Part shown: in pieces, positions 2,921-63,717 of the stretch | How positions within the stretch are numbered: the first letter of the stretch is position 1 | How the letters are laid out: each line of letters begins with the position of its first letter | Source of the DNA: a virus | Direction: 5' to 3' (one strand) | Length of the DNA: 64,000 bases | Virus record (IMG/VR): IMGVR_UViG_3300045988_074170 | The notes under the pieces: model-generated | What the model was told of the DNA's origin: nothing | The model's database searches: none | What the model saw: only the letters and a program-made list of their open reading frames with translations | Program-made: the position numbers and the translations under genes

Positions 2921-4579
2921 TCATTTCAGATGTTTCTGTAAGAATTTCCTTGCCAACAGTTCGTTCTCGCTTTGCCCCTTGTTCACCACCCCTGTTATAA
3001 GGCTCTTATCCTTAACGGTTTCCCTCATTTCGACGTCTATTGTGTCTGGTGATAATAGGTAGGTGATATTTATACTATTCTTTTGCCCCATTCGCTCAAG
3101 ACGACTGTTCGTTTGTTCCAGGTCGGTTGACTTGTCAGGAAGTTCAATGTAGAAGAGGTTCGAGCAGTTGTCCTGAAGACCGTCTGTACCTGTGCCAGCC
3201 GACTGAATGTTCGCAAAGAGCAACCGATGTTTCCTCTGTGAAAACTCGTTCACAATTTGTTGTTTCTTATCAGCCGAGACTCCACCCTGTATTATCGGAG
3301 CCTTAAAGTATTTCGCCAGTTCCTGGAGCGGTTCACGGTGCACACCGAAGACCACCAACTGTTCGTCTTCATTCGCCTCTAACCAATCCTTGATGTATGA
3401 TTGCATGAACGGCAACTTCCCTTTCACCGACAGGGATTTCAACGTGTTAATCATTACAAGATGAGGAGCGTTCACGGCATTGTTTGCCTTCTCGATATCT
3501 ATCTTCTCGAGATACGCTAACAGGTCTGACTCGGCTCGCCTGTACTCCTTGAGATTCACAATAGGAACGTCAACTGTTTGCTCTACCAACGGTGGGAGCT
3601 CGGTGAGGACGTCTCGCTTATTTCGTCTAATATAGCCTCCCATTCGTAACAGTTCATGAAGTTCCTCAAGATTACTGAACCCACTAAAATCGAAGCCATA
3701 TGGCGTTTGCTTCGCATTGCAATACCTGTACTTAAAGTCGAGGTCGGCTCCGAATATATCTTCGAACCGTCTAATTATCTTGAACGGCTGTATCAGGTCA
3801 GACGGCTTATTTTGAATCAATGTACCTGTCAATCCCCATACGTGCTGAATTCGTTTAGCAATCTTCTTTGCCATCTTTGTGCGAAGAGCCTTTTCACTCT
3901 TCAGGAAGTGTATCTCATCCATAGCACAGGATGCCCAATACTTTCGTAACAGTTCCTTGAACTTTGCAGTCGGTTTCTCCATGTTACGTTCTCCGAGCAC
4001 ATCATAGTTGATGATGACAACATCGTTGTTCCACACTTCGGTGTCAAACTTTCGTTTGCGCTCAATCACACCTATCTTTCGATTGGGGTTCCATTTCTCC
4101 CACTCCTTCTTCCAGTTGTACTTCACAGACGCTGGAGTAATAATTAGAGTTGGGAAAGCATCCATTAACTCAATTGTAATAATCGTTTGACCTGTCTTAC
4201 CAAGACCGCACCCGTCCCCATTGATACAGTTCCCATGATTAATCATATACGCAACCCCCTCACACTGATAGGGACGAGGCACACGTTTCAGCCCAATTTC
4301 CTTACAGGCTTGAGCGACTTCCTCTGGAGTTATCACTTCTGGAGGCTCTTGATAAGCTATAACATTCGGAGAGGGAACGTAGTTCATCCCCTCTTTAAAT
4401 CCGTTCGCTTCCAGCCACTTCTTTAGTGGAGCCAATGTCGTTAATTGAATTGGGACGTACCATTCCCTGTTCTGAGGATTGTATCCCGCACCAGCAAACT
4501 TCTTTACAGCCGTAACCAATTCTGGGTCATACCTAAACCCGACGTAAATATAATTTCCGTCACTGTACCAATATCTCAT
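2921..4579 (-). CDS. SNF2-family helicase with an N-terminal HARP-like domain (SMARCAL1-like annealing helicase)
   Basis: Contains GCGLGKTGQTI (motif I), DEIHFLK (DExH) and a helicase-C region ending QSAGTGTDGLQ. The N-terminus, YIYVGFRYDPELVTAVKKFAGAGYNPQNREWYVPI, resembles a HARP repeat. Confidence 0.75.
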   Translation of the reverse strand: MRYWYSDGNYIYVGFRYDPELVTAVKKFAGAGYNPQNREWYVPIQLTTLAPLKKWLEANGFKEGMNYVPSPNVIAYQEPPEVITPEEVAQACKEIGLKRVPRPYQCEGVAYMINHGNCINGDGCGLGKTGQTIITIELMDAFPTLIITPASVKYNWKKEWEKWNPNRKIGVIERKRKFDTEVWNNDVVIINYDVLGERNMEKPTAKFKELLRKYWASCAMDEIHFLKSEKALRTKMAKKIAKRIQHVWGLTGTLIQNKPSDLIQPFKIIRRFEDIFGADLDFKYRYCNAKQTPYGFDFSGFSNLEELHELLRMGGYIRRNKRDVLTELPPLVEQTVDVPIVNLKEYRRAESDLLAYLEKIDIEKANNAVNAPHLVMINTLKSLSVKGKLPFMQSYIKDWLEANEDEQLVVFGVHREPLQELAKYFKAPIIQGGVSADKKQQIVNEFSQRKHRLLFANIQSAGTGTDGLQDNCSNLFYIELPDKSTDLEQTNSRLERMGQKNSINITYLLSPDTIDVEMRETVKDKSLITGVVNKGQSENELLARKFLQKHLK

Positions 4580-6533
4580 TCTCGAAATCTTTTCTCGAAA
4601 TTATTTTAATTCCATATTCTGACGCTTTTTTCATTTTAGATGACGAACTATTCATGTCGGCTGTTACCAACAGATATAAATCTTTTGATACTCCGTTTGA
4701 TACCGTATATCCAAACTGAGGAAGCATCTTTTCAAGTTCTTTATCCCGAAAACCTGTTAAACATACCTTTTTGAACCCCCCTTCCGGAGTTTCAACTTTC
4801 GGAGACTGAACATAAGTAATAACGATTCTTTTATCCTTTCCCCTCGAAAGATACGTTTTTAACCCCTTTACGAAAGTCAAAGCCAGCACCTCACCTATTC
4901 CCGGAATGAGTTCACATTCGTGCTTTAAAGCGACCGCAGACTCCGCAGTGAGCGCATAACTGTTTGGGTCTCGAAGCCTCTCAACCGTTTCCTCATTCAA
5001 GCCGTCTAAGATTTTCTGGCAGGTCGCCTCGGCAATCTTTCCGTCAAATACATTTATGGCTGTTAGGTAACGAGCCAACGGTACTCCGGCAAGAACCTTT
5101 TCAATCTGACTTGAAACGGTCTTCCCCTTTGACTTCCCTAACAGGTTCTGGAACTCCGCAACGTGTGACTCAAGAATTGTGTCTATCGTCTTATAGCCGT
5201 GTCCATACAAACGACGTATCGTAGGCTCTTCAAACTGTTCGCAACCCATCGTGCGGAAGAAATACACCATACCAGAAATTACTCTTTCCTTGCACGACTC
5301 ATTTGAGCATACAAGGTCAACGTGCGTTTCGTTCCATTTGAGCGGTTCACCACAGGACGGACAAATAACAAGGTCGTCCATCATATCGGTGTACGCATTC
5401 TCGTTATACTCAATCGTCTTCAAGTGTTTAGGGATAACGTCTCCACCACGTGTTACTTCGATGAACGCTCCCTCACAGATATGCTGGTCAATCAGGTAGG
5501 CTGCATTATACGCTGTGGCTCGTGATACGGTTGCTCCGTTAATCTCAACAGGTTCAATGATGATTACAGGGTTCAGAACACCTGTCTTCCCTATTCCCTT
5601 TTCTATACTGATGACCTTTGTCTGATACACGTCGCACCACTCTTCCTTCTTGAACGCAATAGCATAGGCGGGATTTCCGTTAGGAAGCCGTCCGAGTTGT
5701 TCGCGGACGCTTTCCTCATCGACTTCTATCACCACGCCATCAATCTTGTATTCAGCGTCAAACCTGTCATGAAGTTCCTCATCAAGCAACAGGTTCATTT
5801 CTTCATCGTCGAGTTCCATTATCTCTTCAATCAAGAAACTGACATACGGAGTAACATTATGGAACGTTCTTTTCAATTCTTCGAGAACGCTTGACTTGTC
5901 GCCTGTAAGGTCAGAGCCATAACGCACGAAGTCCACGTTTGCCAAGAAGCGGTTGTTCCAGCCGTCCGGAGAGTTGAATATTCCGGCAACCATATTACGA
6001 GCGTTCTTATAGGCGAAGTCGGCTTGGTTGTCCTTGAGGTGGGCAAAGGTCTTCTTTTTAATGATAGCCTCGCCCCACGTATGCATGAGGTGTGGCTCCG
6101 GATGCTCGCCCTCACCATTGAACATACGGCCGAAGTGTTTCGTTGACAACTGTCCTTCTACACCATCACCACGAGTCCACGCTCTCTTATCGTCTTCATC
6201 AACGACAAGGCTTATTCCGTCAAATTTAGGAGTGGCGACAATCTCCTTACAACCTGCCGCAAGCATCTTCTGTAACCATTTGCGGAAGTCCTTGATTGTC
6301 TTGATTTTTTCGAGGCTGTACATAGGGACAGGCAACGGCTCCATACGGTCGATGGCTTCCTCTACGATACCTTTCTTGAAAAACTCATCCTCAGGACTGT
6401 TCTCCCTGAGAGTTTCGACCATGTGGTCATACTCAACATCTGACACTTGAGGATTGCCCTCGCGATAAGCCTTATTCAGAGCGATAAGTTCTTCTCTCAG
6501 GCTGTTAATCTTTTCTTGTTTCATCTTTGCCAT
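4560..6533 (-). CDS. ligA: NAD-dependent DNA ligase
   Basis: Adenylation motif TPKFDGIS (KxDG), Zn finger CPSCGEPLKWNETHVDLVCSNESC, HhH region and C-terminal BRCT-like tail. The length of 657 aa is typical. Confidence 0.9.
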   Translation of the reverse strand: MAKMKQEKINSLREELIALNKAYREGNPQVSDVEYDHMVETLRENSPEDEFFKKGIVEEAIDRMEPLPVPMYSLEKIKTIKDFRKWLQKMLAAGCKEIVATPKFDGISLVVDEDDKRAWTRGDGVEGQLSTKHFGRMFNGEGEHPEPHLMHTWGEAIIKKKTFAHLKDNQADFAYKNARNMVAGIFNSPDGWNNRFLANVDFVRYGSDLTGDKSSVLEELKRTFHNVTPYVSFLIEEIMELDDEEMNLLLDEELHDRFDAEYKIDGVVIEVDEESVREQLGRLPNGNPAYAIAFKKEEWCDVYQTKVISIEKGIGKTGVLNPVIIIEPVEINGATVSRATAYNAAYLIDQHICEGAFIEVTRGGDVIPKHLKTIEYNENAYTDMMDDLVICPSCGEPLKWNETHVDLVCSNESCKERVISGMVYFFRTMGCEQFEEPTIRRLYGHGYKTIDTILESHVAEFQNLLGKSKGKTVSSQIEKVLAGVPLARYLTAINVFDGKIAEATCQKILDGLNEETVERLRDPNSYALTAESAVALKHECELIPGIGEVLALTFVKGLKTYLSRGKDKRIVITYVQSPKVETPEGGFKKVCLTGFRDKELEKMLPQFGYTVSNGVSKDLYLLVTADMNSSSSKMKKASEYGIKIISRKDFENEILVQ

Positions 6534-6560: not shown

Positions 6561-6592
6561 TTTAATAAAAACAGGGGGAACGAATCCCCTGT
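6561..6592 (-). terminator. Rho-independent terminator
   Basis: Minus strand reads ACAGGGG-ATTCGTTC-CCCCTGT (stem 6571-6577/6586-6592), followed by TTTTATTAAAG. Confidence 0.6.
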
Positions 6593-6683: not shown

Positions 6684-7004
6684 CTATCTTAACATTGTAA
6701 TGAGCAACTTCTGTATGGTCGGCTTTGCCTGACTTCCCAAATTTACAAATGACTGTGATTCTTTCGCCTTCACCATTATAGGCAGAGAACTTAGTATTGT
6801 CTCACCGTTATAGTGTTTTTCGTTTTCATTGATGAAAATTTCGTGACCCTGTACTTCAATGCCTGTAAGTTCAACATCAGCATATTCAGAAACGTATTCT
6901 CTCTTAGTTCTCTTTGTCGGCTTTCCGTTACGCATAATGGGTACATCTTGAAATTTATCACCAACAAACAATTTAGCAACGATTGTATTACCTGTTCTTT
7001 TCAT
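6684..7004 (-). CDS. Hypothetical protein
   Basis: 106 aa ORF, preceded by a predicted promoter and followed by a terminator. No recognisable motif. Confidence 0.5.
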   Translation of the reverse strand: MKRTGNTIVAKLFVGDKFQDVPIMRNGKPTKRTKREYVSEYADVELTGIEVQGHEIFINENEKHYNGETILSSLPIMVKAKESQSFVNLGSQAKPTIQKLLITMLR

Positions 7005-7032: not shown

Positions 7033-7063
7033 CAAAGGTAGTGGAATCTGATGATATTCCAAA
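7033..7063 (-). promoter_or_regulatory. Bacteroidota-type promoter (-7 TAccTTTG, -33 TTTG)
   Basis: Minus strand has TTTG (7063-7060), a 19 nt spacer, then TACCTTTG (7040-7033). It sits 29 nt upstream of the ATG at 7004. Confidence 0.5.
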
Positions 7064-7081: not shown

Positions 7082-7312
7082 TTAATATTTTTCAAATTCT
7101 TCCGCTGTTAAACTTAAACAGCCAACCCACGCACGAGTTTCGCTCTCCGTGTGAGCTTCAATACGTTCTATAATTTTACCGCCTTTAGACTTTACCCGTA
7201 ATCTCGGATATTTTGTATAATCATAAGCGATTTCGTCAATTTCATCTACAAGAAATAGAGGTTGACCTCCATTCAATTTCTTTTGTACTTCGTCTCTTGA
7301 TGACTTTTTCAT
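7082..7312 (-). CDS. Hypothetical protein
   Basis: 76 aa ORF that overlaps the stop of the upstream gene by 4 nt. Confidence 0.45.
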   Translation of the reverse strand: MKKSSRDEVQKKLNGGQPLFLVDEIDEIAYDYTKYPRLRVKSKGGKIIERIEAHTESETRAWVGCLSLTAEEFEKY

Positions 7313-8007
7313 AACTTAATATTTCTCACTTCGTTATAATACTTTTCACTTTCCTTAATTAGAACTACTGCCTCACCGCTTGTTTTCGGTAACACACGTA
7401 TTCTTTCATAAATTTCATGACCACGTCCCGGAGCTACTCCTGACTTCCTACATTTTTCAAACAGTTCCTCGCCTAACAAAGTTTTCGAAATTTCGGGTTT
7501 TTCCTTACCGAAAATCATTTGAGGGGTGTTTACCTGTATTTCACCAACAAGACCGTTGCCAAACTCTATATTTAGAATATGACCTGAATATCCAGCAAAG
7601 TTTTCAGGAGTCTGAACCTTATGTCTAACAACCTTAAACTCACCTTTCAGCTCAAAAAGAATTTCATCCAATTTAGATGCTTCAACAATGAACGTGTTTC
7701 TAATTAAGTCCTTCAGCTTTGAAACAGAAGTTCCCTCAAGTAAAATTTTTCGCTTAACACTCTCAACTGATTTTAAACTAACAGACGTAACTCGTATCCC
7801 AAACTTATTCGCAAAACCATAGGAAGCCTTCTGAAAAGAATTTACATTCGGAATAACCTTTTGGCTGAAATAATTCTTAATCTCGACAACCTCGTCAACC
7901 TTTTGAACGCCATATCTTTGTCCAACTCTGTGTAAACGACGATTTTCAGGTGTGTCCTTATACACACCTGAACGAGACTTTAATAGTTGAAATTCAATTA
8001 AGTTCAT
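7309..8007 (-). CDS. RelA/SpoT-homologue synthetase-like protein (small alarmone synthetase / toxSAS-like nucleotide pyrophosphokinase)
   Basis: By-eye matches to RSH synthetase motifs: SLKSVESVKRKI (RxKxxxSxxxK-like), KDLIRNTFIV (DxxGxR-like), AGYSGHILNIEF (GYRSxH-like), GEIQVNTPQM (EIQIRT-like) and GHEIYERIR (H..YK-like). Confidence 0.5.
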   Translation of the reverse strand: MNLIEFQLLKSRSGVYKDTPENRRLHRVGQRYGVQKVDEVVEIKNYFSQKVIPNVNSFQKASYGFANKFGIRVTSVSLKSVESVKRKILLEGTSVSKLKDLIRNTFIVEASKLDEILFELKGEFKVVRHKVQTPENFAGYSGHILNIEFGNGLVGEIQVNTPQMIFGKEKPEISKTLLGEELFEKCRKSGVAPGRGHEIYERIRVLPKTSGEAVVLIKESEKYYNEVRNIKL

Positions 8008-8416
8008 GATTTAAAATTGAAAGAGCAACAGAATATTTCTCACGATTATACACCTTTCCTCTATTGGGGTCAGTATTATCAGCAATATCATATTTCTTAA
8101 CATTAATCGCCAAACAGTTTTTACTGCCCCTAATTTTTCGAATGTAATCAAAATAGGGAACGCTTTTATCGTGATTTAATAATTCCAATGCTTGAATAAT
8201 ACAATCGTTATTTGTCACCTCTCGTTTTATATCCTCAACCGTATAATGAGTGTCCTCAAGAACATCATGTAGCAACGCAACAATCTTTTCATCGTCAGTG
8301 AGTGCCATATAAGACACTCTTACAGGGTGTAAGAAATATTGCACACCGCTTTTATCAACTTGTCCCTCATGGGCTTTTTGAGCGAACTGTAATGCTTTAT
8401 AAACTTCTTTTTTCAT
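7994..8416 (-). CDS. HD-domain small alarmone hydrolase (SpoT/Mesh1-like (p)ppGpp/(p)ppApp hydrolase)
   Basis: ALQFAQKAHEGQVDKSGVQYFLHPVRV...IVALLHDVLEDT matches the RSH hydrolase (HD_4) signature. The track start at 8452 is TTG and overlaps the predicted -7 box, so the ATG at 8416 is used here. Confidence 0.7.
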   Translation of the reverse strand: MKKEVYKALQFAQKAHEGQVDKSGVQYFLHPVRVSYMALTDDEKIVALLHDVLEDTHYTVEDIKREVTNNDCIIQALELLNHDKSVPYFDYIRKIRGSKNCLAINVKKYDIADNTDPNRGKVYNREKYSVALSILNHELN

Positions 8417-8439
8417 ACACTTGTTTTTATTTGACGCTA

Positions 8440-8470
8440 CAAATGTAGTCAAAGAAATTGGAAGAACAAA
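8440..8470 (-). promoter_or_regulatory. Bacteroidota-type promoter (-7 TAcaTTTG, -33 TTTG)
   Basis: Minus strand has TTTG (8470-8467), a 19 nt spacer, then TACATTTG (8447-8440). It sits 24 nt upstream of the ATG at 8416. Confidence 0.55.
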
Positions 8471-8479
8471 GAAATTTCA

Positions 8480-8508
8480 GGAATATTCGACGGGATTCCG
8501 AATATTCC
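8480..8508 (-). terminator. Perfect 10-bp inverted repeat hairpin (terminator or operator)
   Basis: Minus strand reads GGAATATTCG-GAATCCCGT-CGAATATTCC, followed by TGAAATTTCTTTGTT. It lies directly after the stop of ORF 8519..9133. Confidence 0.5.
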
Positions 8509-8518
8509 TTTAAAATTT

Positions 8519-9133
8519 TTACTCTTCCATCATGTTATGATATAGGTCAAGGCGAATTTTCGCATAAGCTGCTTCGACATTTGTAAATGCCCTTTGATTG
8601 TTTGCACCCTGTTCATTGTATATTTCGGATTCAATAACTTTTGCAACCTGCTCAACCCATTTTGGATTTGTATAAGAAGACAATTTTTTGCCATGGTAGG
8701 AAAAACAGTCGAATTTTGAATTTCGGTCTTCATGAAGATTTGTTAAAAGCTGTCGAATTTTCTTTGCTGTGGCTTCTTTGTCCGAAATATGATTCTCTTC
8801 CCGAACCTTCTTAATTATCCGGCAAACCCTTTCAATTGCAAGGTCGAAAGCCATATTAGTAACAGTCTTAATTCGTAGCTGCGTTTCCGGAACTAGGCTC
8901 TCGGATATAACACTAAGCTGGATATTTTGATTCCTTGTTTCTGTCAGTAGTTCCTTAAAAGTTTCTCGCTGGGAATTCATAGTGTCGTTTATCACCTTCA
9001 TGAACCAACGGAAGAAAGTTACCCACATCAGTGCTGACAGCACCAAAAAGAATCCGGCTGTAATAGCCATCATTCCGAAATCTCCAATGCTCTTTCCTGT
9101 CTCGATAGCAGGATTAATCATGTCTGTACCCAT
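8519..9133 (-). CDS. Hypothetical single-pass membrane protein
   Basis: Hydrophobic segment FGMMAITAGFFLVLSALMWVTFF near the N-terminus. The rest looks helical and soluble. Confidence 0.5.
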   Translation of the reverse strand: MGTDMINPAIETGKSIGDFGMMAITAGFFLVLSALMWVTFFRWFMKVINDTMNSQRETFKELLTETRNQNIQLSVISESLVPETQLRIKTVTNMAFDLAIERVCRIIKKVREENHISDKEATAKKIRQLLTNLHEDRNSKFDCFSYHGKKLSSYTNPKWVEQVAKVIESEIYNEQGANNQRAFTNVEAAYAKIRLDLYHNMMEE

Positions 9134-21584: not shown

Positions 21585-22703
21585 TTATCCGATGAACAGT
21601 TCGTTCAGTAACGGGTTCCGGAACTCTACCAACTGTTTTGTCCAATAACGGAAGATAACCTTTGCCCAGTCAGAGAACATCTCATCTTCAAACTTTTCAA
21701 TATCCGCACGCAATAACTCGAAGTCCTGTTCTGTACGGTTTTCACTGTTACGACAGTTTTCTTCGAACTGGCTCAACTGAGCGATAAGCGCATCGAACTC
21801 CTCTAAAGTTTTAAACGTCGTCTTATAGGAAAAGTTTACTCCGGAAGGATACGAATTTGGGTCTCTTTTAGCGATTTCTTCAGCCAACGGAATGAAGTCC
21901 TTATAGACATGAAGATTGTCTGCCTTGTGGTAATATTTCCCGACAGGCACGCCCACTATCGCTGCGACGTACTCCTGCATCAATGTAAAGTTGAACACGT
22001 TCACCGCACTGAACCCCCAGATAAGGTCATTCGAACGGATATCCACGTAACAGTTCATCTTTCCATTCACTATCATGAAGTGGATTGAACGGGTACACGG
22101 TGTATCCTTTGTGAGGAGCAATGGAGCCTTTTCCCCGTCCTCTTCATTCTGATTGAAGTTGTCAGAGATAGGGTCGTGAATTGTGATAACCGCTTCACGG
22201 GTATCGATGTCCTGCTTGAACTTTTCAATGACGAACCGTAATTGGTCAGTCACGTTCTGGTACAGTCCGGGAGCCTTCAATTTTGAATAACGACCGTTTT
22301 CGTCTGCTTTACCGTTCTTATACTGTCGCGGAAGTAACTTTCCGGACAATGTTACCATCGAATCAAAATTGTCCCCGTAACGACGTATTCTGGGTCCATA
22401 TCCCGCTCTCATGAACTTCCCATCATCTGAAAAGTTTACAAGGTTCTTCACGTAGGAAGCAGGCATCTCAAGACTGTTATCCCCACGAGCCAACCACAGG
22501 GACTCAATCCACCCCAATGTTTTGTTCCATTTACGCTCCGGAACACGAACATAGCGGTCGGTCGGATTAGTTATCTCAATGAGGACGGCTCCAGGGAACT
22601 CACGACATTCGAACCCTCTTCGGGTAACGTCAATCCCTTTATCCATCAATTCCTTACAAAGTAGCACCAGCGCACTACTCAAATTTTCTGCTTGAAAATA
22701 CAT
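21585..22703 (-). CDS. Thymidylate synthase-family enzyme, candidate dUMP hydroxymethyltransferase (or ThyA)
   Basis: TPCTRSIHFMIVNGKMNCYVDIRSNDLIWGFSAVNVFNFTLMQEYVA aligns to the ThyA core [34 protein letters not shown] (catalytic Cys, RS.D, Asn). 372 aa, with a long C-terminal extension. Confidence 0.7.
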   Translation of the reverse strand: MYFQAENLSSALVLLCKELMDKGIDVTRRGFECREFPGAVLIEITNPTDRYVRVPERKWNKTLGWIESLWLARGDNSLEMPASYVKNLVNFSDDGKFMRAGYGPRIRRYGDNFDSMVTLSGKLLPRQYKNGKADENGRYSKLKAPGLYQNVTDQLRFVIEKFKQDIDTREAVITIHDPISDNFNQNEEDGEKAPLLLTKDTPCTRSIHFMIVNGKMNCYVDIRSNDLIWGFSAVNVFNFTLMQEYVAAIVGVPVGKYYHKADNLHVYKDFIPLAEEIAKRDPNSYPSGVNFSYKTTFKTLEEFDALIAQLSQFEENCRNSENRTEQDFELLRADIEKFEDEMFSDWAKVIFRYWTKQLVEFRNPLLNELFIG

Positions 22704-22717
22704 AAGTCTTTCTTGAT

Positions 22718-23752
22718 TTAATCGATTAATAATTCTCCTGGCTTGGGCAACTTAGCATTCCACTTCGGGGGGAATACGAACTCAATCTTCTTCGGACTCT
22801 TTTCGTAGGTGTGCTTGATACGTTCATTTCTACCTTTGTTGAAAGACGCTCCTAATCCCTTTGCAAACTTCGATGTTTCACAGAAACAGTTCTGAAGATT
22901 TGTAAGAGTAGGAACAGGCTCCCACGGTAACGGGTTCCACTTCATACCTGTCTTTTCGCAGAAGTCACCCATCAGCCTTTCAAAGTTGTCGTGAACCCAC
23001 TTGATAGTGCCCACATAGTCATAACGCTTTCCGGACGCTCCGTCAAATGTCCAACCGATACCTTTCAGCGACCCTGGACCAGTGATGACAAAATCGTTTT
23101 CCGAAAAGTTAAACAGGGGTGAATAATTCAGGTCAATGCAATATTGCTGAGCCGTGAAGTCCCCGTAGATTTTCATATTCCTGAAAACCCAATACAAGTC
23201 CTCAAAGGTCTTCGCCTCTAAGAAGTCATACAAGTGTCCGTTCTGAAAGATTTCATCTTCGAAGATACGAAAGTGGGCACGATGCTTGCTCATCCCTGTA
23301 ATATGTTTATATTCGGGATATTGATAGAAGAAGCAGTTCACGATGTAGGCATTACCATATATCGTGTCTCCGCCATCAACAACCTTGTCAAGAAACTTCG
23401 CTATGTTTTCCAAGCCTGTTTCGTAGGTGATGTCCCCGAACTCCTTTTCCAACAAATCCCACGTTTCGTTCTTATTGAAATGCTTGAAAAGCAATATGCG
23501 AAAGAACATATCCTCTGGTTCATACTGTTTGCCATTGTAAATTACACGGCTCAACAGGTATTGGCTGACCCTATCCAAGCATCTATAAACATTGGTGAAC
23601 TTGAATCCCCGAAGTATTTCATCGTCTGTCCATGGTCCAACCTGTCCATTGTACTTTTTCCAGAAAATGTTTTGTCTTTCGCATATCCAATACAAAAACC
23701 AATTAAATGTTTCTAATGGAACTGGCTTAAACGATTTTATATCTTTTCCCAT
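22718..23752 (-). CDS. All-alpha protein, candidate alpha-glutamyl/putrescinyl-thymine pyrophosphorylase-like (aGPT-Pplase) DNA base hypermodification enzyme
   Basis: The N-terminal block FNWFLYWICERQNIFWKK..GPWTDDEILRGFKFTNVYRCLDRVSQYL resembles, from memory, proteins annotated as DNA base hypermodification proteins. The call rests mainly on gene context (TS-like enzyme plus P-loop kinase). Confidence 0.35.
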   Translation of the reverse strand: MGKDIKSFKPVPLETFNWFLYWICERQNIFWKKYNGQVGPWTDDEILRGFKFTNVYRCLDRVSQYLLSRVIYNGKQYEPEDMFFRILLFKHFNKNETWDLLEKEFGDITYETGLENIAKFLDKVVDGGDTIYGNAYIVNCFFYQYPEYKHITGMSKHRAHFRIFEDEIFQNGHLYDFLEAKTFEDLYWVFRNMKIYGDFTAQQYCIDLNYSPLFNFSENDFVITGPGSLKGIGWTFDGASGKRYDYVGTIKWVHDNFERLMGDFCEKTGMKWNPLPWEPVPTLTNLQNCFCETSKFAKGLGASFNKGRNERIKHTYEKSPKKIEFVFPPKWNAKLPKPGELLID

Positions 23753-62205: not shown

Positions 62206-62982
62206 TTATTTCACGAGACGAATGTTCTTCTTGTTATACATATACAAGGCTGCGTCTTGACCGATTGCCCCACATACAGGGTCGAGCAAATAGGCAGTTG
62301 TATTGTCACGCAAAGACTTCTGAATTTCGGGGTCGGTTTCCTCGTCGATTGATTTAGTAATCAATTCACGAACAACCGCACGGTCACGAGATACGCTCAG
62401 GATGGTTTTGTTATCCTCGTCTTTCGCTCCACCGCCCATTTCGAGACTCTTTTCGATAACAGCCTTATTCAGACCAGCGGTCTTAAATGCAGGAGCAGTA
62501 TCACCAAAAGCAATAATCGCTTGACGCATTCCGTCCAAAGATTTTTCAATCTTATCAACGACAGGGGTCAAAGCCTGTTCAATTACTCCGGGAAGAGATT
62601 TCATGAACTCATCCTGAGACTGAGTAACCTTGCCAAGCAAGTTGTCTTCGATACTCTTCATGATATCCGCAGAAATTGACTTGGCGATGTCGTCTGGGTC
62701 TTTACTCTTGTCAGCACCGCAACCCTTTTCAACATCGTCTGGGTCTTTGTCACCATCCTTGTCATCAGGGTCTTTCTTGTCTTTTTCTTTGTCCTTTTCC
62801 TTCTTCTCGTGTTCACCGTCTCCGTCGCCTTCACCATGGTCATCCGGACCACTCTGAACCGACTTCTCCAATTTGATTGAGCCGGAATCAATCCAACCAG
62901 CAATCACCTCTTCTGAGAACCCACTACCAAGCAGGGACTTAACGAGGTCGTCATTTTTTTGTTCATCTGTTAACTGTACCAT
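62206..62982 (-). CDS. Putative scaffolding protein
   Basis: Acidic, helical, with a low-complexity tract (KKEKDKEKDKKDPDDKDGDKDPDD). Lies between the protease and capsid genes. Confidence 0.5.
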   Translation of the reverse strand: MVQLTDEQKNDDLVKSLLGSGFSEEVIAGWIDSGSIKLEKSVQSGPDDHGEGDGDGEHEKKEKDKEKDKKDPDDKDGDKDPDDVEKGCGADKSKDPDDIAKSISADIMKSIEDNLLGKVTQSQDEFMKSLPGVIEQALTPVVDKIEKSLDGMRQAIIAFGDTAPAFKTAGLNKAVIEKSLEMGGGAKDEDNKTILSVSRDRAVVRELITKSIDEETDPEIQKSLRDNTTAYLLDPVCGAIGQDAALYMYNKKNIRLVK

Positions 62983-63042: not shown

Positions 63043-63717
63043 TCAAATGTCTTCTTGAACAATGCGGAATTTTGAGTCAATAATTATCCTCTTGTTTCCA
63101 ACTACCTGTTCGAACATGATACTCTTTCGTAGGTGACTCTTCAAAATTTCACCCGTAGGAATAAAATCTTGCATTTGAATCCCCTTTACAAAATCGATAT
63201 ACGAATTGAAATTCACAGGTGTGAACGTCAGAGCAATGTTATTGATAATTGCTTTCGTGATATGCTTTTCATTTTTCGGGTCTCGCTCGAGTGCTTTGCC
63301 CTCAATAGACATTCCAGGCTTTCGGGTTGAACCGCTTTCACGCATTTCAATACACTTGTCCCAAAAGGCTCTCGCCTCTGGAGACTCGCTCCACAGTTTT
63401 CCTTTCACCCAAAATTTATTATCAACTATCTTTCCGTCAAGCGGTTCACCAATCCAAAACCTACTCTTCAGCTCTTTTGCTCGAACTGTTAGGTGGTCAA
63501 GATTGAATAAGCCGTGTTTCAGGAAGTATTGAATCTCGAAGCCGTTTGGCTCCATAGAGTCACCTTGATAATCCTTGCTGTCATCACTTGCGATACCCTC
63601 AAAGACCATGTTCTCGTAGCGACGTTCATCACCACGAGGATACTGCATAGCTTCCTCAGACTTCATAATGTCAAGAGGAAGCCAGAAGTTGAAATCATTT
63701 GGGGTTTGCTTCTTCAT
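63043..63717 (-). CDS. Prohead maturation protease (S78/U35-like)
   Basis: VFEGIASDDSKDYQGDSMEPNGFEI..FLKHGLFNLDH resembles the HK97-family prohead protease N-terminal block. Position is upstream of the scaffold and capsid genes. Confidence 0.6.
   Translation of the reverse strand: MKKQTPNDFNFWLPLDIMKSEEAMQYPRGDERRYENMVFEGIASDDSKDYQGDSMEPNGFEIQYFLKHGLFNLDHLTVRAKELKSRFWIGEPLDGKIVDNKFWVKGKLWSESPEARAFWDKCIEMRESGSTRKPGMSIEGKALERDPKNEKHITKAIINNIALTFTPVNFNSYIDFVKGIQMQDFIPTGEILKSHLRKSIMFEQVVGNKRIIIDSKFRIVQEDI

Follow-up and report, generated by a model that had tools for sequence, protein, structure and literature searches.

A variable phage cassette with a predicted Tas1-type pyrophosphokinase, two putative antidotes and an N-terminal leader shared with head-module proteins

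Organization of the three-gene cassette

This study concerns a compact three-gene cassette in a 64,000-nucleotide (nt) stretch of viral DNA, IMG/VR record IMGVR_UViG_3300045988_074170 (the window denotes this whole stretch). Every gene considered in the window lies on the minus strand. An initial annotation had described the locus as a self-contained pair, in which the gene of a small alarmone hydrolase overlaps that of a RelA/SpoT-like synthetase. The locus also holds a third gene and a short N-terminal leader on the synthetase, both of which had been overlooked. The cassette comprises the following features:

7994–8416, minus: aph-like gene for a predicted HD hydrolase, 140 amino acids (aa) from its ATG
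7309–8007, minus: apk-like gene for a predicted Tas1-type synthetase, 232 aa
7082–7312, minus: tis1/iapK-like gene, 76 aa, whose start overlaps the synthetase stop by ATGA
7897–8007, minus: N-terminal leader of the synthetase, residues 1–37, with its core motif at 7909–7980
7086–8517: segment inserted relative to empty-slot relatives, containing a hairpin, a promoter match and the three genes (blastn breakpoints against loci L026 and L038)

The hydrolase stop codon TGA (7996–7994) and the synthetase ATG (8007–8005; context AATC ATG AAC TTA ATT GAA) produce an overlap of exactly 14 nt, as originally reported, and the 76-aa gene is coupled to the synthetase gene through the ATGA overlap. The hydrolase start was set at ATG 8416 because homologues have this length and the alternative, longer start, TTG at 8452, falls 5' of the -7 box. 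A match to the Bacteroidetes-type promoter, TTTG-N19-TAcaTTTG, spans 8470–8440 (minus) about 24 nt 5' of the hydrolase ATG, a position compatible with an mRNA start ahead of ATG 8416. The window contains five occurrences of the pattern where 1.94 would be expected, a count that 6 of 100 shuffles also attain and that is only weakly above chance; the promoter assigned to the pair in the initial annotation is thus present as a match and weak when taken alone. The three genes are predicted to be co-transcribed from one promoter and translationally coupled, with an antidote translated both before and after the toxin. Upstream lies the perfect inverted-repeat hairpin that had also been recognized, GGAATATTCG-N-CGAATATTCC at approximately 8479–8509 (minus), with a 12-bp perfect stem, a 7-nt loop and an RNA fold energy of −26.8 kcal/mol (z = −4.84 versus shuffles). 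Since it begins 10 nt past the stop codon of the preceding 204-aa gene, it is most simply read as the terminator of that gene. The hairpin falls within the inserted segment and forms the upstream edge of the cassette.

The cassette is an optional module in a variable slot

The slot that receives the cassette is delimited by the following features:

8519–9133, minus: 204-aa membrane protein (phrog_19698), the upstream border of the slot
7033–7063, minus: second promoter-like site, TTTG...TAccTTTG, which is kept in empty-slot phages, is assigned to the next small open reading frame (ORF) and delimits the cassette on its downstream side
6571–6592, minus: intrinsic-terminator-like hairpin with a T run, which closes the slot ahead of the ligase gene
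4560–6533, minus: NAD-dependent DNA ligase (Pfam DNA_ligase_aden/OB on orthologues), the downstream border of the slot

A survey seeded with the 204-aa membrane protein yielded 62 loci, 43 of which were set aside as belonging to an unrelated 30–60-kb phage group with different neighbours. Presence of the cassette was then scored in the IMG/VR contigs whose flanking 204-aa protein is at least 87% identical (n = 19). The 1.43-kb unit is absent from 16 of these close relatives and present in three. Homology to the empty-slot relatives breaks exactly at 8518 and returns at 7085, and the adjoining 89-bp block (7085–6998), which holds the second promoter-like site, is conserved in L026 and L038. The cassette lies within a low-GC island (0.33–0.38, versus 0.43–0.49 in the flanks), and its region is bracketed by the terminator-like hairpins at 8509–8479 and 6592–6571. 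The cassette, interpreted as a mobile toxin–immunity unit, is an insertion/deletion polymorphism among near-identical phages, so its self-contained nature is more firmly established than had been claimed.

Ratios of nonsynonymous to synonymous substitution (dN/dS) were calculated against relatives with 89–92% identity, at synonymous divergences (dS) of 0.5–1.0. The values were 0.08 for the hydrolase, 0.09–0.10 for the synthetase and 0.14–0.15 for the 76-aa gene, indicating purifying selection on all three; chance ORFs and decaying genes were rejected on the basis of this range (0.08–0.15 at dS 0.5–1.0). A DNA search of the phage collection with the cassette returned nothing informative, and tblastn returned one unannotated faecal contig.

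The first gene encodes a predicted (p)ppApp hydrolase of the Aph1 family

The HD motifs noted initially in the 140-aa protein are present, and the protein matches Pfam HD_4 at 29.0 bits (cut-off 27.2) and phrog_990 at E 7e-32. The match to Aph1 (7SMG), a (p)ppApp-specific hydrolase from a Bacteroides caccae prophage (PMC10083569), reaches E 1.8e-22, while the hydrolase domains of Rel, SpoT and Mesh1 are found at 5e-10 or worse. It is a single-domain HD protein whose metal site (H...HD...D) comprises H16, H30, H50-D51 and D110, all invariant in the hydrolase alignment (A2). The Aph specificity signature described by Ahmad et al. consists of D24, R96, D116, R119, K133 and Y134 (PMC10083569). D21, D116, R119 and K127-Y128 of the present protein are identical to five of these six residues; the counterpart of R96 is K94 or R96, which is basic in either case, with an ambiguous alignment. 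The signature residues are invariant or nearly so among 21 relatives. By sequence, the protein is assigned to the Aph1 (p)ppApp-hydrolase family and is predicted to act as enzymatic immunity. Aph1-family hydrolases neutralise (p)ppApp toxins such as Tas1 relatives (PMC10083569).

The second gene encodes a predicted Tas1-type synthetase

The 232-aa protein aligns with Tas1 (6OX6_A), a type VI effector of Pseudomonas aeruginosa that makes (p)ppApp, over residues 61–228 versus 266–434, with a phmmer E of 5.6e-24 and 63 of 167 residues identical (37.7%). The RelA/SpoT homologue (RSH) synthetase blocks listed in the initial annotation all fall on identical Tas1 residues: K79-S80...K87, D100..R103, G139-Y-S-G142, E156-I-Q158 and H197..Y200-E201 are in register with their Tas1 counterparts and invariant in the family alignment (A3). 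The catalytic residues were assigned from the Tas1 alignment together with the Apk2 papers. A nine-member family profile searched against the Protein Data Bank (PDB) retrieved Tas1 (E 4.2e-51) as the sole RSH chain with E ≤ 0.01; in particular, no CapRel or SAS chain reached E ≤ 0.01 in this database, which contains CapRel. The AlphaFold2 (AF2) model has a predicted local distance difference test score (pLDDT) of 84.9, with all five models between 83 and 85, and is confident over residues 40–232. The top Foldseek match of this model in the PDB is again Tas1 (6ox6_A; E 1.7e-13, template modelling (TM) score 0.85, root-mean-square deviation (rmsd) 2.2 Å). SaEAS, CapRel, SAS and Rel trail it by about eight orders of magnitude, with TM scores of 0.3–0.58 for SaEAS, CapRel and Rel.

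The protein is a Tas1/Apk-type RSH pyrophosphokinase by sequence and predicted fold. In comparison with PDB chains, its sequence places it outside the FaRel/CapRel-type toxSAS. Searches with Pfam and PHROGs found neither a PAAR nor a MuF delivery domain, and the catalytic domain is preceded by the 37 leader residues only. The match to phrog_7625 is correspondingly confined to the C-terminal toxin part of that family (positions 309–490 of 504). The protein is accordingly neither Apk1, as it has no PAAR domain, nor Apk2, as it has no MuF domain. The idea that a phage here carries an alarmone hydrolase with a toxic RelA/SpoT-like synthetase, probably not as a classical toxin–antitoxin (TA) system, agrees with the Tas1 and Aph1 homologies. 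We regard the enzyme assignments of the cassette as very likely correct, and (p)ppApp as the likely, somewhat less secure, product of the synthetase.

The third gene encodes a predicted Tis1-like protein

The 76-aa protein gave no match in Pfam, PHROGs or the PDB sequences. When its best AF2 model (pLDDT 94.3) was compared with 350,542 PDB chains using Foldseek, the top match was Tis1, the immunity protein of Tas1 (6ox6_B; E 6.5e-3, probability 1.00, TM score 0.61, rmsd 2.4 Å), and the second-best match had E 0.26 and a TM score of 0.35. Tis1 and the third-gene product are each 76 residues long. The gene also keeps its place beside the toxin. An 82-aa homologue with 29% identity follows the 38%-identical synthetase of another phage lineage, the family hidden Markov model additionally picks out, in other viral contigs, a 72-aa ORF that immediately follows MuF-fused Apk genes, and a small gene adjoins apk in L001, L009–L013 and L014/15. 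The product is predicted, from its modelled fold only, to be a Tis1-like toxin-binding immunity protein. With three genes, the unit would form a three-part system as described for Apk2, in which the toxin is countered both by a binding immunity protein (BcTis1/IapK) and by an enzymatic one (Aph1).

The synthetase carries a leader shared with other toxins and head-module proteins

The synthetase begins with MNLIEFQLL-KSRSGVYKDTPENRRLHRVGQRYG, and most database matches to the 232-aa protein span its first 25–40 residues alone, at 50–96% identity. The leader-sharing proteins have KSRSGVYKDTPENRRLHRVGQRYG in common, after a short M-x-L-x-E stretch. The consensus, KSRSG-x-Y-x-D-x3-NRRLHRVGQ-x-YG, occupies 25–37 residues that are predicted to be disordered (pLDDT 38–55 in the synthetase model). 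No Pfam model covers the leader, and its strings are absent from the searchable literature. A leader profile detected 946 cluster representatives at E ≤ 1e-3 among 1.84 billion proteins. Of 61 representatives bearing the leader at the N-terminus (alignment A5), most have no Pfam match, while a few match Gln_amidase, Zeta_toxin, RelA_SpoT or MutS_I. The MutS_I domain (E 2.4e-25) occurs in one leader-bearing representative and is an unexpected cargo beside toxin domains.

The cargo also varies at the locus itself. Sibling phages (L001–L003, L012–L013) encode other leader-bearing proteins in this slot, flanked by the membrane protein and the ligase. These have a papain-fold glutamine-deamidase or a zeta-toxin kinase domain; each is followed by a small ORF, and they sometimes occur alongside a Tas1-like toxin. 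The genes of further leader-bearing proteins, in which no toxin domain is recognisable, lie one to three places upstream of the portal gene in L004–L008, and their products usually end in a conserved VNLKKYLS...FNxNFDxxxKSxRAExLY module. L008 is 97.5–98.3% identical to the window over 11 kb and therefore shows what lies just past coordinate 64000 in this phage species. The adjoining part of the window encodes two further head-module proteins:

63043–63717, minus: head maturation protease (phrog_1028, E 4.7e-40)
62206–62982, minus: 258-aa protein in the scaffold position, to which all three [LI]EKS occurrences among the minus-strand ORFs of the window belong

In head-module proteins, the tetrapeptide [LI]EKS directly precedes the leader motif (MTTLIEKS...RLEKSRSG, METLLEKS). 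As a post hoc observation, [LI]EKS fits a candidate prohead-protease cleavage site. The tetrapeptide recurs at the N-termini of the portal-adjacent proteins encoded at L008 1963–2205 and 2288–3949.

Leader-bearing proteins are likewise encoded by cultured Bacteroides thetaiotaomicron phages, namely SJC03 (SJC03_69, at L022 5971–6816) and DAC16–23, the latter in two to three places each. SJC03_69 consists of the leader and a P-loop kinase that by eye is zeta-toxin-like.

Putative antidote genes occur apart from the toxin

Aph-family hydrolase genes were also found beside the ligase with no Apk gene within 6 kb (L002 7302–7778 and L003 8670–9143); the slot in these phages is occupied by zeta and glutamine-deamidase toxins. 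A further copy, 84% identical to the hydrolase of the window, lies in an integrative element (integrase, HTH_17, Phage_CRI replication protein) of an uncultured Bacteroides metagenome-assembled genome (MAG), at L085 6001–6593 and likewise in L086, L087 and L088, where the element adjoins Nmad2/Nmad3 genes. This Aph gene is overlapped by a 60-aa ORF composed only of the leader and the first residues of the next module, and fragments of a degraded second Aph copy lie at L085 8552–9010. The element has the appearance of orphan immunity on the host side or of a satellite that makes use of the leader.

Comparison with known systems

The closest functional precedent is the Apk2–IapK/BcTis1–Aph1 system of temperate phages of Bacteroides caccae, Streptococcus pneumoniae, Mannheimia and Pasteurella, which has the same three parts and is phage-encoded, with a Bacteroides host likely in the present case (PMC10083569, PMC12226406). 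In these triads, the two antidotes are additive, and Aph is interchangeable and provides 'universal' immunity (PMC10083569, PMC12226406). The initial comparison with FaRel-type pairs holds for the pairing of hydrolase and synthetase, and gives way to this three-part arrangement, which includes the Tis1-like third gene, as the closest match. Several differences are nevertheless apparent. Apk2 is an approximately 500-aa fusion with a MuF head-morphogenesis domain, whereas the present toxin has 232 aa with a 37-aa leader and no MuF domain; MuF-fused Apk relatives were found in L014/17/19/20, where MuF is detected by PHROGs, with no MuF match by Pfam. The Apk2 modules lie beside the portal gene in the order toxin–binder–hydrolase, whereas this cassette is part of the replication block, with the membrane protein and the ligase on either side, and has the order hydrolase–toxin–binder. 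Moreover, the Apk2 carriers are temperate. The present carrier is a myophage of about 105 kb whose tested ORFs revealed no integrase, and neither a close toxin copy nor a prophage copy was found in 185,579 species genomes.

The Tas1(Apk1)–Tis1 pair of the type VI secretion system (T6SS) of Pseudomonas aeruginosa (6OX6) provides the best sequence and fold match for the toxin and the best fold match for the 76-aa protein. Tas1 is delivered through PAAR and the T6SS, whereas the present toxin has no PAAR domain, occurs in a phage context and is accompanied by an additional enzymatic immunity gene. The FaRel–ATfaRel pairs and other toxSAS modules resemble the cassette in combining a toxic RSH-fold synthetase with a small alarmone hydrolase in a compact co-transcribed module, and differ in that the present toxin falls outside those subfamilies, is paired with a Tis1-like binder and bears a leader common to other toxin types.

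The leader invites comparison with the internal-protein loci of phage T4, where a capsid-targeting sequence is found on variable head-packaged proteins. In both systems, otherwise unrelated proteins begin with a common short leader, the locus is hypervariable from one sibling phage to the next, and a prohead protease is encoded, here with a candidate cleavage tetrapeptide next to the leader. The T4 leader has no sequence similarity to the leader described here, the T4 internal proteins lack the immunity genes that accompany the present cargo, and packaging and cleavage are only proposed for the present phage. Head-packaged and injected T4 proteins have been reviewed (PMC9503650). The arrangement is also that of polymorphic toxins (PMC3482391, PMC5576092), with a constant N-terminus, swappable C-terminal toxins (Tas1-like, Zeta, Gln_amidase) and a small cognate gene after each; orphan immunity genes and 5' remnants of toxin genes elsewhere are likewise common to both. 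Unlike in usual polymorphic toxins, the constant module here measures about 25–37 residues, is not a recognised trafficking domain and also occurs on phage proteins of the structural module. The N-terminal delivery domains of Apk1 homologues include Sec, T7SS, XopAD, MuF, DUF4157 and PAAR, with nothing like this leader (PMC12691689).

A candidate mechanism and its alternatives

On balance, we favour an Apk(Tas1)–Tis1/IapK–Aph1-type cassette with a leader-loaded toxin as the best overall explanation. The synthetase would transfer pyrophosphate from ATP to the 3'-OH of ADP or ATP, forming (p)ppApp and draining the adenylate pool; the Aph1-family hydrolase would turn (p)ppApp back into ADP or ATP, and the 76-aa Tis1-like protein would bind the toxin and occlude its acceptor site. 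The leader may recruit the toxin into the prohead, as the capsid-targeting sequence of T4 does for variable internal proteins. A few toxin molecules ejected with the DNA into the next cell would cause a short ATP drain and a (p)ppApp burst, serving host shut-off or the disabling of ATP-dependent defences. Newly made Aph and Tis-like protein would end the burst, and both may also protect the producing cell late in infection. The nucleotide product, the toxin–inhibitor binding, the virion loading and the phage benefit are all inferred.

That the leader could be a virion-loading signal is proposed because portal-adjacent proteins of the same phage species carry it, because the internal-protein loci of T4 likewise combine a constant short N-terminus with exchangeable cargo at a hypervariable site, because a head maturation protease is encoded and [LI]EKS sites stand beside the leader motif in head-module proteins, and because orphan antidotes are found in settings where protection against a delivered toxin would be of use. 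Delivery of the toxin is a real possibility that we stop just short of calling probable. More tentatively still, the leader may be a trans-acting loading signal, in which case it would define a new family of polymorphic toxins delivered by phages, whose warheads would include at least Tas1-like, zeta-kinase and glutamine-deamidase domains. These interchangeable toxins would be loaded without structural fusion, and the orphan Aph genes and leader-only peptides of siblings and Bacteroides elements would be the answer to them.

Several observations weigh against these proposals. Virion loading is deduced from leader sharing and gene neighbourhood, and the cassette lies in the replication block, not in the late block. 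The toxin's own leader reads LLKS where the head proteins read LEKS. A leader-type motif (Y-x-D-N-x2-NR-x-LGRVG), for which no Pfam model exists, occurs in animals in 7–13 tandem copies before Ser/Thr kinase domains, as in the snail Biomphalaria pfeifferi (KAK0061970.1) and the starfish Acanthaster planci (XP_022104385.1), which raises the prospect that the leader is a general binding peptide with no connection to capsids. Since most close relatives lack the cassette, any benefit would be conditional. No sequence link between the 76-aa protein and Tis1 was found, either by phmmer or with a broader profile (A6) searched against the PDB, in which Tis1 did not appear at E ≤ 10; BcTis1 itself is only 24% identical to Tis1 (PMC10083569). 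The confident model of the 76-aa protein is also a lone one, as the other four models, built from a shallow alignment, have pLDDT values of 50–55. With regard to the synthetase, Pfam RelA_SpoT (PF04607) scores the 232-aa protein below its gathering threshold (13 versus 27 bits, E 0.13), in the correct register. A significant match to this model, the check suggested initially, formally fails. That check is too narrow, because the Tas1 clade is poorly covered by the model: a 38%-identical homologue scores 24.2 bits with it, and the model under-covers the clade. A rejection of the synthetase on this ground was overturned by the sequence and profile searches of the PDB. The acceptor nucleotide is not readable from the sequence, and attempts at recoding the specificity motifs of Apk2 failed (PMC12226406).

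The arrangement could also be that of a classical intracellular toxSAS TA or abortive-infection module, whose toxin is never exported and is freed by a trigger, such as a superinfecting phage, so that competitors are excluded or the element is stabilised. The overlapping co-transcribed genes, the dedicated promoter and the enzymatic antidote have their parallel in FaRel/ATfaRel (PMC12691689), and the accessory nature of the cassette fits such a module. We nevertheless consider it rather unlikely, as the toxin groups with delivered Tas1/Apk enzymes and not with those of CapRel/FaRel type, the third gene resembles the immunity protein of a secreted effector, and orphan Aph genes occur without the toxin in phages and in the host element. 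The sharing of the leader with head-module proteins and unrelated toxin domains is, in addition, a hallmark of polymorphic delivered toxins.

The same enzyme assignments would hold if (p)ppApp were instead a signal within the infected cell, for instance one that inhibits purine synthesis or alters transcription, with the hydrolase and the binder tuning its level and timing and the leader serving a different end, such as binding a host factor or nucleic acid. Such a host-reprogramming circuit would suit the position of the cassette among replication and nucleotide-metabolism genes, the bacteriostatic, non-lethal action of Apk2 (PMC10083569) and the basic leader motif, which also occurs in non-phage proteins. 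We judge it improbable: the same slot in siblings holds a zeta kinase and a glutamine deamidase with the same leader, which is hard to read as the tuning of one signal; most relatives dispense with the cassette; and two separate neutralisers suggest containment over regulation. A primary role of the hydrolase in counter-defence against (p)ppApp toxins of the host or a rival, with the synthetase and the small gene as a later, separable addition, appears very unlikely. Aph is indeed kept beside the ligase in siblings with no detectable Apk, its immunity is interchangeable between systems (PMC12226406), and lone alarmone hydrolases are known in other lytic phages (PMC12846349). In this lineage, however, the reading frames of the Aph, Apk and Tis-like genes overlap and the three come and go together as a single block, and purifying selection is similar on all three.

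(p)ppApp toxins with dual immunity are already known from T6SS effectors and MuF-fused prophage toxins, and the enzymology is expected. The novel elements are the leader itself, its presence on head proteins and on further warheads, and a corresponding orphan antidote on a host element. The cassette offers a cleaner handle on what phage (p)ppApp toxins are for and on whether they leave the producing cell, as its toxin is free-standing and tagged only by a leader that portal-proximal head proteins carry and that also heads unrelated toxin domains at this hot spot. Natural isogenic phages with and without the cassette, together with a Bacteroides element holding a near-identical antidote, make delivery and benefit directly testable. 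If the leader loads virions, the injection of phage polymorphic toxins could be tested in the cultured Bacteroides phages SJC03/DAC.

The carrier phage and other features of the locus

The carrier is an uncultured myophage with a tail sheath, baseplate J, a family-B-like polymerase and a terminase. Its capsid protein is distantly related to those of the B. thetaiotaomicron phages DAC/SJC03, a Chryseobacterium phage and Bacillus SP-10-like phages. A crAss-like phage, suggested by the promoter type, was rejected in view of the tail sheath, baseplate J and the SP-10/DAC-like capsid. Bacteroides is the likely host, and the lineage is very common in human gut metagenomes, its head protease being indexed in 1,718 collection blocks. 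The cassette is surrounded by a RecA–SbcCD–RuvC–ligase–helicase block for replication and recombination. The initial placement in the early region of a lytic phage is tentative, as a position in the replication block does not establish early expression; lytic growth itself is plausible.

The second variable element of the slot is as follows:

6684–7004, minus: 106-aa ORF with its own conserved promoter-like site

This ORF has no family matches in Pfam or PHROGs, and no relatives of it were detected. It stands in place of a conserved 79–82-aa ORF (MKKFNIQYNGGDT...) of the relatives, including those that share the cassette; a different ORF is found in L023 and L026. The 204-aa membrane protein has 68%-identical homologues in the unrelated 30–60-kb phage contigs L043, L055, L060, L072 and L077 (7001–9500), where the genes beside them resemble a cell-wall amidase by eye, and the membrane protein may be lysis-related.

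Elsewhere in the window, a 5-hydroxymethyldeoxyuridine (5-hmdU) DNA kinase gene (22718–23752, minus; HMUDK_hel, E 4.6e-75) adjoins a thymidylate-synthase-like gene (21585–22703, minus). Like SP-10-like phages, this phage probably carries hypermodified thymidine in its DNA. In the head module, the gene after the portal encodes a MuF-like minor head protein, which has 315 aa in L007 (7698–8645) and 669 aa with intein and homing-endonuclease signatures in L008 (6636–8645); the L007 gene is separate from the cassette and toxin-less. A 433-aa NUDIX protein (L008 8657–9958) is encoded between the MuF-like gene and the protease gene. Just upstream of the head module lies a divergent gene for a Rep3-type plasmid replication initiator, recognized through weak Pfam matches (L007 1241–1987 and L008 1–614).

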